Origin: Methanobacteriota archaeon
GTDB lineage: Archaea > Thermoplasmatota > Thermoplasmata > SG8-5 > JAGLSY01
Direction: 5' to 3'
NCBI GenBank assembly: GCA_020696385.1
Contig: JAEHCQ010000003.1
Span: forward strand, 1-64,000
Length of the DNA stretch: 64,000 nucleotides
Numbering within the stretch: the stretch's first letter is position 1; the number at the start of each line of letters is the position of its first letter. This document shows, one piece after another, positions 35,399 through 45,581 of the stretch. Position numbers and translations under genes: made by a program. The notes beneath the pieces were generated by a model. That model saw only the letters and a list, made by a program, of their open reading frames with translations. It was not told where the DNA came from and did not search any database.

Positions 35399-35559
35399 CA
35401 GATAGTATGAAACCTATTTTTAATTTGGTATATTGTATAGGGTATGATATTATATATAATACATAAATACGAATGTTTCAGCATATAATATGTCCGAATA
35501 ACCAATTAACAATGCAATTATCGAAAGATTTAAGAACTATTATGTACATAATCTGTCCC

Positions 35560-36492
35560 ATGGATGAGACAGATATCAAGATCACAAGCATATTGCATGG
35601 GAACTCGCGAATATCGACAAGAGAGTTGGGAGATATACTGGACCTATCGGTGAACAGTATTCATAAAAGATTGAATGCCCTCATTGATAATGGTGTTATC
35701 GAAACTTTTGTCATGGGCCCATCCTGTTCCTCTATAGAACATGTGTCTGTATTGATCATGGGAAATTCATCATGCTCATCCATGAATGAATGTGTGGCCA
35801 ATCTGGGAAAGGACAAGAATGTGCTAAAGATCATAGTAGGACTGGACAATAAATTGTTCATATCCTGCATCATTCCTAATATATCAGATCTGAGAGAGCT
35901 GACCGACCATTGTATACAGGCTGGTGAGCTGGAAGATTATCAGGTGGGCATATTCGATATCCCCGTATGCCAAAAGAAGAAGAAAAGTGATGAGGATGAA
36001 GAGGAAACAAAGAAAGTCAAGCTCACAAAGCTGGACTACAGGATCATACACAGCTTCTCCAAGAACTCACGGCGACCAATATCCGATGTCGCGGATGATC
36101 TGAATGTATCACCAAAGACAGTTAAAAGACGACTGGCAAAGTTGGAGAAAGAAAGCCTTGTAGGTTCCGGCATCCACTGGCAACCCACCATGACCAATGA
36201 TATAATCACCTATCTGTCAGTTACCGTGGATCCTGGTATAGATGTTATGGAGCTATTCACGAATTTGAGGGAAAACTATTGCCCCAACTTCATCACTCTG
36301 TACTCCTTCGGCAACCTGCCGGACTTCATCTTGATACTGTTCTGGACCAAGACCATGAGGGAGATGAATGACATTCAGCAGGCCTTGAGAAAGGAATACG
36401 AATTCAAATCAATAAGGTCCAATATGCAGTACAGAGCCCATCATTTTGATACATGGTTGGACGATCATATCAAGAAAAGAGCCGAGCTGTAA
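35560..36492 (+). CDS. Transcription regulator with two tandem Lrp/AsnC-type wHTH units
   Basis: Paralogue of 22377-23282 (NSRIS.RELG, SPKTVKRRLAKLE, WQPT, QYRAHHFDTW). Confidence 0.88.
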   Translation: MDETDIKITSILHGNSRISTRELGDILDLSVNSIHKRLNALIDNGVIETFVMGPSCSSIEHVSVLIMGNSSCSSMNECVANLGKDKNVLKIIVGLDNKLFISCIIPNISDLRELTDHCIQAGELEDYQVGIFDIPVCQKKKKSDEDEEETKKVKLTKLDYRIIHSFSKNSRRPISDVADDLNVSPKTVKRRLAKLEKESLVGSGIHWQPTMTNDIITYLSVTVDPGIDVMELFTNLRENYCPNFITLYSFGNLPDFILILFWTKTMREMNDIQQALRKEYEFKSIRSNMQYRAHHFDTWLDDHIKKRAEL

Positions 36493-39454: not shown

Positions 39455-39826
39455 ATGGACGATCATCAAGGTGCGATGAAAGGAAATATCGATAAGGACA
39501 TCTTGCCATACATAATTGATTCGATACCCGCTGAGCTGACATTCATAGATGAGAATGATCTCATTGTGTTTTGGAGCCAGCCCGAGACAAAGATATTCAG
39601 CAGGCCAGACGGTATCCTGGGAATTGATATTAGAAAATGTCACCCCAAGAAAAGCCAGGATGATCTGGAAAAACTGCTTGCGGATATGAGATCTGGCTCC
39701 ATTGACAAGAAAACAATGAGAACCGTGAACAATGGCATGGATATTCAGGTAGAATACGTCGCTGTTAGAGACAGCGATGGCAAATACAGAGGATGCCTTG
39801 AGGTATGTCGGGTGCTGGATAAATGA
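39455..39826 (+). CDS. Stand-alone PAS domain protein
   Basis: IPAELTFIDEND...IFSR...GIDIRKCHP...GKYRGCLEV. Confidence 0.85.
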   Translation: MDDHQGAMKGNIDKDILPYIIDSIPAELTFIDENDLIVFWSQPETKIFSRPDGILGIDIRKCHPKKSQDDLEKLLADMRSGSIDKKTMRTVNNGMDIQVEYVAVRDSDGKYRGCLEVCRVLDK

Positions 39827-39844: not shown

Positions 39845-40915
39845 TCAGAGATCACCATACGCCTTCTTGATCTCTTTAGATGTTATTCTGGCCCTTTGGT
39901 CTTTTTTTCTTGCAAGGATGAATAATTCCCTCTGCATTTTCTTGTAATCACCATATCGTTCCTGCTCAAGATCACCCCTCTCGATCGCTTCCTTTATGGC
40001 ACATTTTGGTTCTGTACGATGTCTGCAATCATTGAACTTACATTGTGAGGCCAGTATCTCAATGTCCTCGAACATGGATCCAAGTGTTGTCTCATTACCC
40101 CACAGGCCAAGCTCGCGAATGCCGGGATTATCAATGACCAATGCTCCATTATCCAATACCATCAACTCGCGATTTGTTGTCACATGCCGGCCATGAGAAT
40201 CATGCTCCCTAACGGATCCTGTTTTCTGTTTTTCATGGCCAAGCAAAGTGTTTATGATAGTGGATTTACCAACACCAGAGGAACCCACGAGGCTTATCGT
40301 GATGGCAGGCTGGAGATATTCCTGTATCACATCCAGACCTTCTTTTCCCAGGGCGCTGGTGATATGTATTGGAATATCGGCATCGATCTTTCTGATAGCA
40401 TCTATCTTACTCTCTACATCCGCACATAGATCGGATTTATTCATTATGATGACCGGACGGGCTCCACTCTCGTGAGCCGCAAACATATATCTCTCCAGCC
40501 TTCGAATATTGAAATCCAGGTCCAGGCCAAGAACAATGAATATTATGTCAATATTGGATGAGATAACCTGGGCCTCGGTGATAAGATCCAGATTGCTGGC
40601 AACTTTCCTTTCAAGCGCGGTCCTTCTTGGTAAAAGACCATGTATAGACATCTTGCCAGTTATCCCATTACCCTTGACCGCCACCCAATCCCCGACAATT
40701 GGGAAATCACTTCTCTCCGTGGTATTGAACCTGAACTTGCCAGTGACCTTGCCCTCAAGTTCACCCTGTTCGGACATCGCGGTGTAAAGATTGACATGTT
40801 GGGCAGTTATGCGTGCGGGAATGAATCCCAAATCGAGATAGTTTTGGAAGGCCTCCTCAAAATAGGCAGACCATCCGAGTTCTTCCAGTTTCATAATATC
40901 GAAATTGAAAGTCAT
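39845..40915 (-). CDS. rsgA: Ribosome small subunit-dependent GTPase A
   Basis: OB-fold VGDWV, circularly permuted NKSD / GSSGVGKST / DNPGIRE, zinc finger CKFNDCRH...C. Confidence 0.93.
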   Translation of the reverse strand: MTFNFDIMKLEELGWSAYFEEAFQNYLDLGFIPARITAQHVNLYTAMSEQGELEGKVTGKFRFNTTERSDFPIVGDWVAVKGNGITGKMSIHGLLPRRTALERKVASNLDLITEAQVISSNIDIIFIVLGLDLDFNIRRLERYMFAAHESGARPVIIMNKSDLCADVESKIDAIRKIDADIPIHITSALGKEGLDVIQEYLQPAITISLVGSSGVGKSTIINTLLGHEKQKTGSVREHDSHGRHVTTNRELMVLDNGALVIDNPGIRELGLWGNETTLGSMFEDIEILASQCKFNDCRHRTEPKCAIKEAIERGDLEQERYGDYKKMQRELFILARKKDQRARITSKEIKKAYGDL

Positions 40916-41175: not shown

Positions 41176-41306
41176 TTTCATGTCCGATTCTTTAACAGAT
41201 AAGCAGAGAAACATCCCATTATTTCATATTTTTGTTTTATTTTTTTACTTCCGCATCTAACACCAAAATATAACCTATTCTGACAATTATCATAATGGTG
41301 ACAAAG
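41176..41306 (+). promoter_or_regulatory. Conserved promoter cassette copy C
   Basis: TCATGTCCGATT...AGAGAAACATCCCATTAT...CATCTAACACCAAAATATAACCTATTCTGACAAT...GGTGA. Confidence 0.65.
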
Positions 41307-41615
41307 ATGAAGATAAAGAAAAGATCAATAAAGAAAGGTGAGCTAGAAAAGGGGAATAAAGCCAAGGTGATAGGCATGGTGCTGGTAATGAGCCTCATCG
41401 CAATGGGTATGGGATATGGCATAGCGATGAAGCCGTTGCTAACCACAAAAGCATGTGATACGCAGAAGATAGTAGCCCCGATCCATTCGGATGAAATTCC
41501 AAATGAAGTAGATATGGTGGATCCAATTATTCCAATGACCGCATCACCAAAGGCATCATGTGTGTATGACAATGCAGGATGCTCCGGAATAGCAAGTGAC
41601 GTCAGGCATATTTAA
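41307..41615 (+). CDS. Small exported/membrane-anchored protein with conserved C-terminal peptide (paralogue of 44562-44885)
   Basis: Basic N-terminus, hydrophobic helix, ends AGCSGIASDVRHI. Confidence 0.75.
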   Translation: MKIKKRSIKKGELEKGNKAKVIGMVLVMSLIAMGMGYGIAMKPLLTTKACDTQKIVAPIHSDEIPNEVDMVDPIIPMTASPKASCVYDNAGCSGIASDVRHI

Positions 41616-41627
41616 TTCAGGATTAGA

Positions 41628-41661
41628 AGAACTGGCATCTTGCCCAATTGATGCCAGTTCT
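41628..41661 (+). terminator. Hairpin downstream of the small exported protein
   Basis: AGAACTGGCATC-loop-GATGCCAGTTCT. Confidence 0.6.
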
Positions 41662-41777
41662 CTCATACCTGTGATTGTGTGCCTGCAATATTTTTATTTT
41701 AAAATATATATTATATGCGTGGTATTTAAATGAGCGCTCGGGAAATATTTTTATCACTTAGCATTCTAACTATCTGC

Positions 41778-42719
41778 ATGCGATTCAAGTTCTACGACGA
41801 GGTGGATCCGGACCAGGTGAATGACATAATGCTCATATGCCATGGTGAGCCAGCTGACCGCAAACTGGTCGATAAGGTTAGGAGGACCGATCCTTTCAAT
41901 TCTCCCTGGTTCAGGATGTACGCTGTGGAAAAGGGACAGATAATGTCCCAGGTAGGCGCGACATATCCCATGATAGAGACCGCGCAGGGCAAAATGAAAA
42001 TTGGATATATAGAAGCCGTCGCCACCTTTCCCAGATATGCCAAGAAAGGTGTGGCCAGGAAGCTGATGAACAAGGTGCATGAACACATGATCGAGGATGA
42101 TGTGGATCTATTCTTCCTCGGTGCATCCAGGACCAGTGTGGCTCCACTTCTCTATTCTGATCTTGGCTATCATGTAATTGGAGAATATGACTGGGGGATG
42201 AAAAAGCGCCAGACATATCCAAAGACCGGCATCACCATGAAGGTGCGACGACACAAGATAGACAATGGCGATGAGATGTTCAGGAAAGCCATCAAAGGAA
42301 AATTGGGATTCATCCATAGGCCAGATGATTATCCTAAAAAGAAATCAACCTGGGGAGCCTTCTATCAAAAAGCAGTTACATTCTATCGAGATGAAAAACC
42401 AATTGGCTATGCCTATGTAAGGTTCATGGGTGAATATTTAGGGATAAGAGAGCTGGTATGCCCCAATGGCAAGGACTTTGCCCCATGCCTTCAAGCCCTG
42501 GAGAACCACTTCAAAAAACCAGAATATGTGACTCGCTCCTTGGTCGGCCCCTCACCTAGCCAGGCCAAGAAATATGAGGACTATGGATTCAGGACAATGG
42601 ACACATGGGGAATACACATGGCCATGGATCCAAAGGGCAAGATGAACCAGAAGCAGTTGGAAGAGCTCCTGGGAATCGATAAAGACTTATTTCAGATCAA
42701 GTCTTTGGACACTTACTGA
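41778..42719 (+). CDS. GNAT family acetyltransferase (Eis-like, tandem GNAT)
   Basis: IEAVATFPRYAKKGVARKLM...LYSDLGY. Confidence 0.85.
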   Translation: MRFKFYDEVDPDQVNDIMLICHGEPADRKLVDKVRRTDPFNSPWFRMYAVEKGQIMSQVGATYPMIETAQGKMKIGYIEAVATFPRYAKKGVARKLMNKVHEHMIEDDVDLFFLGASRTSVAPLLYSDLGYHVIGEYDWGMKKRQTYPKTGITMKVRRHKIDNGDEMFRKAIKGKLGFIHRPDDYPKKKSTWGAFYQKAVTFYRDEKPIGYAYVRFMGEYLGIRELVCPNGKDFAPCLQALENHFKKPEYVTRSLVGPSPSQAKKYEDYGFRTMDTWGIHMAMDPKGKMNQKQLEELLGIDKDLFQIKSLDTY

Positions 42720-42749
42720 ATAAAATGTTGATCCTTTGCCAGACTGTGC

Positions 42750-43014
42750 ACTCCAGCCCATCATCTTTAAATGGAAATAAGATGATCAGATCGACACATG
42801 CGGGGTATCCAGCCTGCATGGAATGCCTGGTATCATGGGAGGAGTGGCCGCAATCTTCGTGGTTGCTGGTCTTGACGTACAATCACAATTGATGGCCATC
42901 GCGATAACAGTGGCCATCGCAATAGGATCTGGCTGGTTCGTGGGACAGATACTCGCTCTTCTCGGAACGAGGATACTTCCATATGATGATTCGGAAGAAT
43001 TCCTGGATGAGTAG
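42750..43014 (+). pseudogene. C-terminal remnant of an Rh50-type ammonium transporter
   Basis: IDTCGVSSLHGMPGIMGGVAA...YDDSEEF; in-frame TAA at 42778; N-terminal three quarters absent. Confidence 0.75.
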
Positions 43015-43118
43015 AATAACAACAATAACCGGGGCAGGTGATTTTTCCTGCCCCGATACCCTTTTATTTTGACATGTCAAGATTCGGTTTATATATCAAA
43101 ACTAGCCTAATTCATTTT

Positions 43119-43874
43119 ATGTGTATGGTCGGCCCAAACTTGATAACTTTGCTCGGAGTCTTGATATTATCTGCGATGATATATGGACTTCTAAAGATCC
43201 ATATGGACGAGATCTTTGCAGGACTACTGGCCACAGGATTTTTATCATTGGGAATCATGGTAAATCTGTATGGAGTGCCATACGGAATGCCCAATCTTGA
43301 CCTTATCAAGGTCGGAGCCGCGATAGGAATCATCGCGACAATCGCCTATTATCTTTACGAGAGAGATAAAGTGTATCCAGATAAGAGAATATACAAGGCA
43401 TGGGGATTTGTTGTATTCATCTCGATATTGATAGTGATAGGAGGGCTTTTCACCACGACCGATAGATACCATGACCATTACTATGGCTCATTGTCGCCAG
43501 CCGGTACTTGGAATGAGATGGGAGCATCTTCCTCAACTGAAGGATATGCACAGTTTGGTACATTTTCTTTTGATGTAAAACCATTGGATTTTAAAATATT
43601 TGCCATAGCAAATGGCTCGGACATTGGAGTATTGGAATTCACGACAAATACAGGCACAGCACCCCAGGACATGACCTGGCATAATGGACCAGAAGGGGCT
43701 GAAGCTACCTATTTCGACTATAATCCAGCCGGAGGTGAGATCAACCAGGGCGATTACATTAATTTGACTGGCCTGAGTCCAGATACTGCCTATGAATTTG
43801 AAGTATTCCACACCAAAACAAATACCGTGGTTCCAATGACAGGAGTAGATGGTAATTTCACAACAGAACCGTGA
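43119..43874 (+). CDS. Four-TM protein with extracellular beta-rich C-terminal domain (pilin/FN3-like)
   Basis: Hydrophobic N-half; GEINQGDYINLTGLSPDTAYEF. Confidence 0.7.
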   Translation: MCMVGPNLITLLGVLILSAMIYGLLKIHMDEIFAGLLATGFLSLGIMVNLYGVPYGMPNLDLIKVGAAIGIIATIAYYLYERDKVYPDKRIYKAWGFVVFISILIVIGGLFTTTDRYHDHYYGSLSPAGTWNEMGASSSTEGYAQFGTFSFDVKPLDFKIFAIANGSDIGVLEFTTNTGTAPQDMTWHNGPEGAEATYFDYNPAGGEINQGDYINLTGLSPDTAYEFEVFHTKTNTVVPMTGVDGNFTTEP

Positions 43875-43920
43875 AGGTCCCCAATCACATTCATATACAC
43901 CAATCCCCATATTCCCTTCA

Positions 43921-44292
43921 ATGTCCAAGGGGAAGAGATCGGGTAATAAAGAGAGACAAAAAGAGGAGACCAGAAGATCCTATCTGCTGTTCGTGTATTA
44001 TCTGATATTGCTATTCATCGGCATACTGGTGATGTACATCGTCAATGTGATATTCGGAGAGATATCATACGCGGTTCTGACCTTCGCTTTCTTCGCAATT
44101 TTCATGGTATGGCTCATCATCAAGACCTCGAGAAACAATACCAAAGTGCTTCGATCATACGATTACATGCACTCGGTCAATAAGATGCAGCCCAGGAAGA
44201 TCAAGAACACGCGGTGGAAATCATCCCTGAAGCATCAGGAGAAGGCCCGTAAGACCAAGTACAAGGCCTATGATAAGAAGCGATACAAATGA
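43921..44292 (+). CDS. Two-TM basic hypothetical protein
   Basis: Two hydrophobic helices flanked by Lys/Arg-rich segments. Confidence 0.7.
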   Translation: MSKGKRSGNKERQKEETRRSYLLFVYYLILLFIGILVMYIVNVIFGEISYAVLTFAFFAIFMVWLIIKTSRNNTKVLRSYDYMHSVNKMQPRKIKNTRWKSSLKHQEKARKTKYKAYDKKRYK

Positions 44293-44453
44293 TTATTTTT
44301 TTATTTGATATTTGTTATAATTATTGGGGCAAAATACCACGCGATCTTCAGATTTCGACCTCATCTCATTAATTCCTGAAAGTGCCCACTTATTGGTCAC
44401 TTTTGCTCATTTTAGTTATGAACTTTGACCACTCTATATAGAAATAGACTTCA

Positions 44454-44548
44454 TGAGGGCTCCCCAAACTCGGCTTTGGGATATGAGCCCTTATTGAATC
44501 CAACCCAAGCAAATACTGCGGTATTGTAGCTTGGGGATGATTCAACAA
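44454..44548 (+). ncRNA. Two-hairpin structured leader / candidate small RNA
   Basis: AGGGCTC-CCCAAA...TTTGGG-GAGCCCT and TTGAATC-CCCAAGC-AATAC(TGCG)GTATT-GCTTGGG-GATTCAA with cUNCGg loop; TATA-like sequence at ~44434. Confidence 0.5.
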
Positions 44549-44561
44549 AAGAGGTCGGGAT

Positions 44562-44885
44562 GTGAAAAAAATGACAATGAGAAGTATAAGGAAAAAGAGG
44601 GCAAGTACGATGAAAGACAGCTTCAACGGAACATTACTGGTTGCCGTATTCGTGACAGCCTCCCTATTGTTCATGGGAGTAGGATCATTGGCAGCAAGCC
44701 AAGATCGCGAGGTAACAGACACGGCCAGAGCACCACCAACAGGATATTACACAATAACCGGGGCCGATGGAATACCTGTTCACACTACACAGATAGACAC
44801 AACAAGCCAGGCACCACCAGTAAAGGAGATCACAACAAGCCAGGGCGGATTGTCAGGATTCGCAAGCGGTGTCAGCCACGTTTAA
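44562..44885 (+). CDS. Small exported/membrane-anchored protein with conserved C-terminal peptide (paralogue of 41307-41615)
   Basis: Basic N-terminus, hydrophobic helix, Thr/Pro-rich linker, ends GGLSGFASGVSHV. Confidence 0.75.
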   Translation: MKKMTMRSIRKKRASTMKDSFNGTLLVAVFVTASLLFMGVGSLAASQDREVTDTARAPPTGYYTITGADGIPVHTTQIDTTSQAPPVKEITTSQGGLSGFASGVSHV

Positions 44886-44960
44886 GGCTGATACCGTTCC
44901 ATTTTATTTTATTCATACTGAACCAAAATCCTATTAAGTTGGTTCGTGGTTGTACATAAT

Positions 44961-45581
44961 ATGGCAAATAAAGTGAAGGATAAGCTTGAGCCCATTGTCT
45001 GGGCTAGTGCCGGATTGCTGGTGATAGGAATGATCCTGGCCTGGTACAATCTGATAATGTTCGATATCGGACCTTTCAATGTCTGGCTTGACAATGACAT
45101 ATACAGATACCTGGCATTTATCCCCGCCTTTATGAGCATACTGCCCTGGTCGAACGCGGTCTTCAATAAACAGCCGATCTGCCTGAGGAACTCGGGCATA
45201 TTTCTGTGCATGACACTTATACTTCCAAGCATGATTCTGGGAATTATCGCGATAGTAATCGTCTACGGAAGGGGAATAGCTGGCTCTACCGGTGAAGGGG
45301 ATGGAAAGCCCGCCCTGGAATTCTCACTGTCCAGGACATGCGAAGGTGATGCTTTCGACACCTTTCCAAGATCCACAACACGGATAGACATCGAGAAAAC
45401 TCTGGCCATTCTAAAGGCCAGAGATTATACCGAACTCTCTAACACAGGTAATATGTGTGAAGTGGAGAAGGATGGCATGGAGATCACGATATTCTCCAGT
45501 GGCAGATTACTTGTTGGATCTGCAGACTTTGATATTGCTAGCAAGACAGCAGCGATGATCTATGAGATGATCGTCGAATAA
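44961..45581 (+). CDS. Three-TM protein with soluble C-terminal alpha/beta domain
   Basis: TM helices then ...EITIFSSGRLLV... Confidence 0.75.
   Translation: MANKVKDKLEPIVWASAGLLVIGMILAWYNLIMFDIGPFNVWLDNDIYRYLAFIPAFMSILPWSNAVFNKQPICLRNSGIFLCMTLILPSMILGIIAIVIVYGRGIAGSTGEGDGKPALEFSLSRTCEGDAFDTFPRSTTRIDIEKTLAILKARDYTELSNTGNMCEVEKDGMEITIFSSGRLLVGSADFDIASKTAAMIYEMIVE

Follow-up and report, generated by a model that had tools for sequence, protein, structure and literature searches.

A 64,000-nucleotide stretch of DNA (the window) from an uncultured sediment archaeon of the Thermoplasmata carries two neighbouring plus-strand genes, here called A and B, that encode small proteins with a basic N-terminus, one hydrophobic helix and closely similar C-termini. 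Gene A (41307..41615, 102 amino acids) has its helix at residues ∼21–39, followed by a putative ectodomain with two cysteines that ends in CSGIASDVRHI-stop. In gene B (44571..44885, 104 aa) the helix spans residues ∼22–42 and is followed by DTARAPPTGYY, a Pro/Thr-rich spacer and the end LSGFASGVSHV-stop. The stretch RSIKK in A corresponds to RSIRK in B, the helices end in SLIAMGMG and SLLFMGVG, and the extreme C-termini are AGCSGIASDVRHI and GGLSGFASGVSHV, respectively. An earlier note on this DNA had described two small proteins with a common RSI(K/R)K, helix end and C-terminal motif; both open reading frames (ORFs) exist and all of these features were confirmed. As listed in the window, the ORFs are slightly longer (41295..41615, 106 aa, and 44562..44885, 107 aa). 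The true starts are likely ATG 41307 and ATG 44571, which are preferred because of their Shine-Dalgarno (SD)-like context and their alignment with the starts of orthologues. The SD-like elements, as read on the plus strand, are GGTGA at 41297-41301, five bases before the start of A, and GGATGTGA at 44558..44565, 5 nt before that of B.

The genome that contains the window (G000; 50 contigs, 2,277,883 bases, 94.5% complete) was compared with the other three genomes of the same genus (G001–G003). The family sample comprised 15 distinct sequences, 13 from a protein database of 5.8 billion clusters and two from the DNA of relatives, and was divided into 11 B-type sequences and four that are A-type or intermediate, the intermediates being P0012 and P0013. 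Residue conservation and the AlphaFold2 model were based on a 14-row family alignment.

Two distant paralogues of a genus-restricted family

A and B are distant paralogues of an undescribed, genus-restricted family. Their relationship is visible only through profiles and intermediate sequences, because direct comparison by BLASTP gave no alignment at E ≤ 100. Used as a query, A matched the B-type gene of G003 (E = 0.0017). When 1.84 billion representatives were searched exhaustively with a profile, just three proteins reached E ≤ 0.001, among them P0012, which mixes A-like traits (two cysteines and the tail CSGMSSGAMHV) with the B-like elements GPDGVP and PSPK; together with its relative P0013 it bridges the two types. 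Seven residues (G36, G38, D66, K85, G96, S99 and H103) are invariant in the alignment. The middles of the proteins, which had been taken for unrelated low-complexity sequence, are diverged homologues, as indicated by the invariant D66 and K85 and by the bridging sequences.

Among stop-to-stop frames of at least 20 aa on all 50 contigs of G000, only A and B end in the strict C-terminal motif. A looser family pattern, derived post hoc, occurred twice in 4,555,566 six-frame residues, in A and in B and each time directly before a stop, against ∼0.001 occurrences expected from composition. The resemblance of A and B is therefore far beyond chance.

The distribution of the family is narrow. Searches with B against 61 relatives gave convincing matches only in the four genomes of the genus (E 7e-66 to 4e-23, the orthologues in G001–G003 lying between 4e-23 and 7.5e-34), with all others at E ≥ 0.02, and the sole orthologue of A was in G002 (E 4e-38). 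When the family profile was run against 401 genomes of the class, representing 105 genera, five genomes reached E ≤ 0.001, of which four belong to the genus itself. The match in the fifth genome (G350; 23 bits) lies inside a 389-aa frame, covers profile positions 18–84 and has no tail, and it was not counted as a member. The alignment search of the 5.8-billion-cluster database yielded 11 proteins and then 13, of which P0001 is labelled at its source as a hypothetical protein of ‘Thermoplasmata archaeon’; P0012 as a query found no relative among the genome contigs searched. Neither Pfam nor NCBIfam holds a family for A, B or P0012, and the best score in the ESM Atlas (0.81, with a lead threshold of 0.9) was to fragments of the type VI secretion protein Hcp and was treated as noise. 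Exported mini-proteins restricted to one lineage are frequently encountered in uncultured archaea, and without experiments they can rarely be interpreted.

Conservation of the C-terminal motif in further homologues, on which the earlier note had staked its proposal, was borne out by all 15 distinct members, each of which ends in [SC]-G-[FYIMT]-x-S-[GD]-[VIA]-x-H-[VI]-stop. A glycine stands three residues ahead of the first residue of this motif in 12 of the 15. The tail is also the least variable segment of the protein, with a mean column entropy of 0.97 bits compared with 1.38–1.64 bits for the other four segments. Conservation is not confined to it: the helix motif [SGT]-[LI]-x-x-[LM]-G-x-G is present in every member, and B-type proteins additionally share DTARAPPxGYY directly after the helix, and GPDG[IV]P. 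Given the almost complete conservation of L32 (90% or more) and the retention of G36, G38 and the spacer residues D66 and K85, helix and spacer appear to do more than a generic leader would.

Whole-gene dN/dS ranged from 0.32 to 0.55 in all six B pairs, and the A pair (G000 and G002) gave a dN of 0.25 and a dS of 0.94. Distant B pairs differed, over their last 13 codons, by 8–9 synonymous but only three non-synonymous changes (pS 0.79–0.89, pN 0.10). The B-type tail is thus under purifying selection at the protein level, and these values argue for selection on the peptide rather than on an overlapping nucleic-acid signal. Identity between the G000 and G002 proteins is 55% for A and 56% for B, compared with 87–88% for the products of the flanking genes; such fast evolution relative to neighbours is typical for surface-exposed proteins. 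That A and B are chance ORFs, or owe their conservation to an overlapping non-coding element, is hardly credible. The lack of a family or fold match would agree with it, but dN/dS is below 0.6 in seven of seven pairs, synonymous change in the B tail is saturating while the residues are kept, and start context and frame are conserved in four genomes. Furthermore, the frame antisense to A is cut short in G002, at 72 aa rather than 111 aa.

The hydrophobic helix, the spacer and the free C-terminus

AlphaFold2 predicted a single helix at residues 18-42, with a predicted local distance difference test (pLDDT) score of about 80 in the block 21-30, and coil elsewhere; mean pLDDT was 57.7 and there was no confident fold outside the helix. 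The top 19-residue hydropathy windows scored 2.07 and 2.31, and the net charge of the first 20 residues ranged from +3 to +7 (n = 15). Applied to the basic N-terminus and the hydropathy profile, the positive-inside rule suggests N-in/C-out insertion, from which we infer that the C-terminal part is exported. This putative ectodomain is Pro/Thr-rich in all 15 members and apparently disordered.

We favour, at a probability of about 0.45, an explanation in which the members of the family are small N-in/C-out proteins, anchored or secreted, with a docking motif at their free C-terminus, and B is co-regulated through a promoter cassette described below. A and B would both be translated genes for small bitopic proteins, each with its own conserved promoter region. 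The short basic N-terminus would remain in the cytoplasm, and the helix with its invariant G-x-G would insert via Sec as an N-in/C-out signal anchor or, in B-type proteins, possibly act as a cleaved signal peptide. Outside the cell, ∼60 residues would form a flexible, fast-evolving, Pro/Thr-rich chain ending in the constrained free decapeptide [SC]-G-Phi-x-S-G-V-x-H-V-COOH, most likely a short linear motif on which a partner outside the cell or in the membrane would dock. B would be expressed together with other small membrane proteins by virtue of a common palindromic operator-promoter cassette. The helix may also contribute to function.

Several observations weigh against this explanation. 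The topology rests on charge and hydropathy, and low AlphaFold2 confidence says little about disorder when the alignment has only 14 rows. In the single A pair the tail is no more constrained than the rest of the protein, with six non-synonymous and two synonymous differences (pN 0.21, pS 0.20), every one of the amino acid changes falling within the motif classes. Small residues occupy positions -3 and -1 before a conserved Gln in 10 of the 11 B-type sequences, as judged by eye against the signal-peptidase rule, and for this reason the B-type ectodomain may be released rather than anchored. At the homologous site, position -1 is Met in all four A-type and intermediate sequences, and none of them has the small-residue pattern. 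The helix may be either a cleaved signal peptide or a retained anchor. Lastly, no partner was found, and no neighbouring gene is conserved across G000/G002, G003 and G001.

The cleavage pattern bears directly on the proposal of the earlier note, namely that A and B are precursors of peptide pheromones, in which a cleaved signal peptide and a trimmed spacer would give rise to a diffusible C-terminal ∼10–13-mer sensed by a receptor or after import. The architectural half of that proposal stood: a basic stretch and helix, a fast-evolving spacer and a C-terminus conserved in 15/15 homologues do succeed one another, most B-type sequences have a plausible cleavage site, and one genome holds two paralogues with differing tails (CSGIASDVRHI and LSGFASGVSHV). 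Peptide-binding SBP_bac_5 proteins are also present in G000 (seven matches at six loci), as expected in a peptide-scavenging archaeon, but none lies near A or B. For the functional half no support was found, as in none of the four genomes is a gene for a receptor, kinase, Opp or protease linked to the family. Receptors of the RNPP or tetratricopeptide repeat (TPR) type linked to family genes were absent from the neighbourhoods examined in these genomes, no S41 tail protease was found in G000, and its HATPase_c proteins, like the peptide-binding loci, lie elsewhere. The tail is nearly identical across species, whereas pheromones usually diversify between species; helix and post-helix block are conserved, unlike generic leaders; and Met at -1 in the A-type and intermediate sequences does not suit cleavage at the homologous site. 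We consider a pheromone distinctly unlikely. The available portions of two publications describe archaeal quorum signals as small molecules in a poorly characterised field and name no archaeal peptide signal (PMC12240190; PMC13464002). A limited literature search likewise found nothing on archaeal peptide pheromones, which is not proof of their absence. Given the invariant G-x-G, the DTARAPPxGYY block of the B-type proteins and the near-constant tail, a retained anchor with a docking motif fits better than a cleaved leader with a pherotype peptide.

Two candidate receptors or sensors were rejected. A TPR-ATPase gene lies near the family gene in G003, but its orthologue in G000 is on another contig (C22). 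A gene for a tandem helix-turn-helix (HTH) Lrp regulator (35473-36492; two AsnC-type HTH domains), which had been put forward as a possible sensor of the peptides, lies 4.8 kb upstream of A, with several genes on both strands between them. No comparable gene is near the family gene of G003, and linkage does not extend beyond the block of synteny between G000 and G002, so that the suggested connection is unsupported.

The same conserved glycines could instead mark the helix as the working part, with A and B acting as small regulatory or structural subunits that pack on a larger membrane protein through a G-x-G face and make a secondary contact with the tail. L32, G36 and G38 are retained across types that share only 22–29% overall identity, and the helix motif, found in 15/15 members, occurs only three times in the whole six-frame translation of G000. 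The cassette of B is also common to other small membrane proteins and a major facilitator superfamily (MFS) transporter. The tail, however, is still the most conserved segment, and no membrane protein is consistently adjacent; the 211-aa protein downstream of B is full length only in G000 and G002. This is an unlikely alternative to docking through the tail.

A further variant combines helix and tail. PDZ matches in G000 are confined to one 451-aa Peptidase_M50 protein (C11:577324-578676; PF13180 and PF17820, each slightly under the cut-off), and A and B could be substrates or ligands of this site-2 protease (S2P), their free C-termini engaging its extracytoplasmic PDZ domain. Cleavage of the helix within the membrane would then free a basic N-terminal peptide inside the cell or a hydrophobic peptide outside it. 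As putative N-in/C-out single-pass proteins with helix-breaking glycines, A and B would agree in topology and G-x-G with known S2P substrates. Most B-type tails end in S-H-V, which resembles a class I PDZ ligand by the general rule; S-H-[VI] ends 8 of 11, with I-H-V and A-H-V as the exceptions. By contrast, A-type proteins end in R-H-I/V and the intermediates in M-H-V, neither of which is class I. S2P is near-universal, the family was found in one genus only, and there is no genomic linkage between them. Complex prediction with the PDZ region of the M50 protein (residues 195-330) and the last 45 residues of B scored 0.00 in two runs without controls, a result that counts neither way. We regard this variant as a very long shot. 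Scarcely better placed is the most far-reaching possibility, that the family represents the first ribosomally encoded archaeal extracellular peptide-ligand system, in which the decapeptide would be the signal, either trimmed free or displayed on a tether. Its receptor would lie at the surface or in the membrane (e.g. the S2P PDZ domain or a giant surface protein), A and B would form two channels, and a dedicated operator-binding regulator would set the expression of B. If the tail turns out to act as a signal or ligand, the way would be open to the study of peptide-based communication at archaeal cell surfaces. The finding at present is a mini-protein family, undescribed and confined to one genus, whose free C-terminus is under unusual constraint, and a C-terminus so strictly kept offers a concrete and cheap experimental handle.

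Regulatory regions and neighbouring genes

B is preceded on the plus strand by a promoter/operator cassette (44372..44456) made up of the palindrome GTGCCCA-N5-TGGTCAC at 44382-44400, a third half-site TGACCAC at 44426-44432 and the TATA-like box CTCTATATAG at 44432-44441. The general form of the cassette has GTGACCA-N5-TGGTCAC as its palindrome, along with the third half-site (TGACCAC) and the TATA-like element. G000, G002 and G003 all retain it ahead of their B-type gene, and in G001 it lies at a contig edge. Two to four copies were found per genome in the genus, with cassettes in four of five family genomes and none found in the sister genus. The other copies in G000 are at C11:344470-344529 (-), C11:350316-350389 (+) and C11:2877-2925 (+), and those of G001–G003 form loci L045-L054. 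These copies precede three classes of genes, encoding a 42-47-aa basic protein, a ∼120-aa two-helix SHOCT-like protein and the MFS transporter, the copy before the last being more diverged. The cassette thus looks like the mark of a candidate small regulon with a dedicated operator, through which B would be co-regulated with other small membrane proteins. The 5' untranslated region and SD of B are kept in G002, in G003 and in the cassette copies. After B, the T-rich stretch TTTTATTTTATT (44902..44913, plus strand) is a possible archaeal oligo-T terminator, as read from the sequence.

The promoter and short 5' region of A (41210..41306, plus strand) include a TATA-like AAAATATAA near 41266-41274. 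The ∼95 bases upstream of A, including this box, are nearly identical in G002 despite the 55% identity of the proteins; BLAST found no further copy of the block in G000, and the window contained only scattered 11-mers of it. Downstream of A on the same strand is a hairpin with a perfect 12-bp stem (41628-41639 / 41650-41661) followed by a T-run (41691-41700). Stem, loop and T-run are all conserved in G002, and together they are likely a transcript end or a stabiliser. It had been proposed that one gene was both cassette-driven and equipped with its own terminator: the hairpin and T-run are present after A, but the cassette is upstream of B.

Between the cassette and the SD of B, an inserted double-hairpin repeat of ∼91 nt occupies 44457..44547 (plus strand). 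The region before B folded at -65.6 kcal/mol (z = -5.26), and none of 200 shuffled sequences folded as well. The structured leader reported earlier is therefore real as a fold; it is, however, an insertion rather than a trait of the family, since G003 is without it at exactly the corresponding place and copies are dispersed in the genome. A strict regular expression recovered the B copy only, and other copies were located by BLAST: 17 further matching places were extracted in G000 (C47:121885-121985, C11:710697-710790, C11:530800-530885, C22:264433-264520 and others), with related copies on at least seven contigs. The element of ∼70–100 bases reads GAGGGCTC..GAGCCC, then TTGAATnCAA-CCCAAGC..GCTTGGGG-ATGATTCAA, its stems being fixed and its loops variable. 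An alignment of nine sequences contained compensatory changes in 3 of 20 predicted pairs, and five of the eight fuller copies are sense-oriented, 7–114 bases ahead of an ORF. An SD-like sequence, GGGGATGAT, forms the 3' strand of hairpin 2. Neither Rfam (E ≤ 1) nor ARAGORN gave a match on the locus, the copy in the window included. These results correct the regulatory picture: several genes for small membrane proteins have an operator-bearing cassette in common, and the 5' leader of B houses a mobile double hairpin.

The gene order in G000 is PAS_10, RsgA (on the opposite strand), A, GNAT, a variable stretch, B, a 211-aa membrane protein, a PhoU-like protein and a PiT phosphate transporter. 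G002 retains this framework, with other genes between GNAT and B. In G003 the B-type gene directly follows a PAS_10 gene and unrelated GNAT-like genes converge on it; the family gene of G001 lies beside one for an unrelated membrane protein of 404 aa. A stand-alone PAS_10 protein is encoded 0.2–1.5 kb upstream of a family member in the three genomes in which that side is assembled (39455-39826 in the window; L042 1900-2253 in G003; L041 4530-4919 in G002). It is the sole recurring neighbour, and RsgA on the other strand intervenes in G000 and G002. RsgA itself (39845-40915, minus strand; PF03193, E 5.5e-46) is a GTPase of the RsgA/YjeQ type and is full length. Such ribosome-assembly GTPases are mainly bacterial and organellar, and the gene may have reached this archaeon by transfer.

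The GNAT gene after A (41730-42719) probably starts at 41778 (MRFKFYD...), as in G002, rather than at 41730. It was rejected as a partner of A, GNATs being found everywhere in G000, for example four within 12 kb of contig C11 (G000:C11:341000-353000, L061). For the same reason its adjacency means little for the idea that A and B are precursors of ribosomally synthesised and post-translationally modified peptides (RiPPs), whose Cys/Ser/Gly-rich C-terminal core would be modified after translation. The tail is indeed rich in Gly, Ser and Cys (GCSG, SGFSSG) and conserved, as are C-terminal core peptides. However, no maturase is conserved next to any member, and YcaO (PF02624) had no match in G000 (94.5% complete), with positive controls detected in 5 of 14 reference genomes. 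Most B-type tails lack Cys, and a strongly hydrophobic helix of 19–21 residues is atypical of RiPP leaders in general. A RiPP origin is very improbable on these grounds.

The stretch between GNAT and B (42720-44560 in the window; L041 7800-11940 in G002) is non-homologous between the two closest genomes and is a putative variable surface-gene slot framed by A and B. In G000 it encodes two membrane proteins, of 278 aa (with a weak Ig/fn3-like match) and 147 aa, in addition to a 63-aa ORF; in G002 there are a 576-aa membrane protein with a PAAR-like end, recognised by eye, and methyltransferase-like and radical-SAM-like ORFs, known from their translations only. The 63-aa ORF (42823-43014), hydrophobic and Gly/Ala-rich with an acidic end and no Pfam match, could be a relic of the C-terminal part of a larger membrane transporter. 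The 211-aa protein that follows B (44946-45581) has three predicted helices and a C-terminal domain weakly resembling half of a TATA-box-binding protein (NCBIfam E 0.003, far below cut-off). On its own, this domain of ∼90 residues was matched in 12 of 31 relatives, the open frames being about 90–360 aa long. As a partner the 211-aa protein was rejected, given that full-length versions are restricted to G000 and G002.

Comparison with known systems

The family was compared with several described classes of small or C-terminally tagged proteins. Archaeal type IV pilin-like proteins were rejected as a match: a small residue does stand ahead of the helix, but its flanks (NG-T, GA-R, KA-K, RA-P) do not fit the [KR]-[GA] pattern of FlaFind type, and the ectodomain of ∼60 residues has no confident fold where a folded pilin domain would be expected. 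The PGF-CTERM/archaeosortase system likewise places a conserved C-terminal motif on exported archaeal proteins. Its signals are tripartite (motif, helix and basic tail), whereas here the helix is N-terminal and the hydrophilic C-terminal 60 residues end at the motif itself. A sorting role, offered earlier as an option beside signalling, is accordingly disfavoured, there being no C-terminal helix (the only one spans residues 18-42) and no NCBIfam match.

Tails that are read by PDZ domains, such as the Y-x-F end of outer-membrane proteins recognised by DegS and class I ligands of the form S/T-x-Phi-COOH, share with the family a constrained C-terminus ending in an aliphatic residue, and B-type proteins have Ser at -2. 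The tail would also lie on the outer side, where the only detected PDZ domain of G000, that of S2P, should be. The A-type and intermediate sequences depart from class I, however, and the conserved stretch of 10 residues is longer than a PDZ ligand. Small membrane proteins of the MgrB/AcrZ/KdpF type resemble A and B in having a single helix with conserved small residues, in being lineage-restricted and monocistronic, and in being embedded in regulons. Most of those are shorter than 50 aa and have no long ectodomain with a conserved end.

The Phr, PapR and NprX peptides of the Firmicutes RNPP systems are similar in architecture, with a small product, an N-terminal export signal, a variable spacer, a conserved C-terminal element and, here as there, two paralogues in a locus. 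They differ from the present family in size (∼40–60 aa compared with 100–106 aa) and in genomic context, as A and B have RsgA, GNAT, membrane proteins and PAS_10 for neighbours rather than an adjacent TPR receptor or linked Opp. Moreover, the host here is archaeal, the helix and post-helix block are conserved, and the tail is constant between species instead of varying by pherotype.

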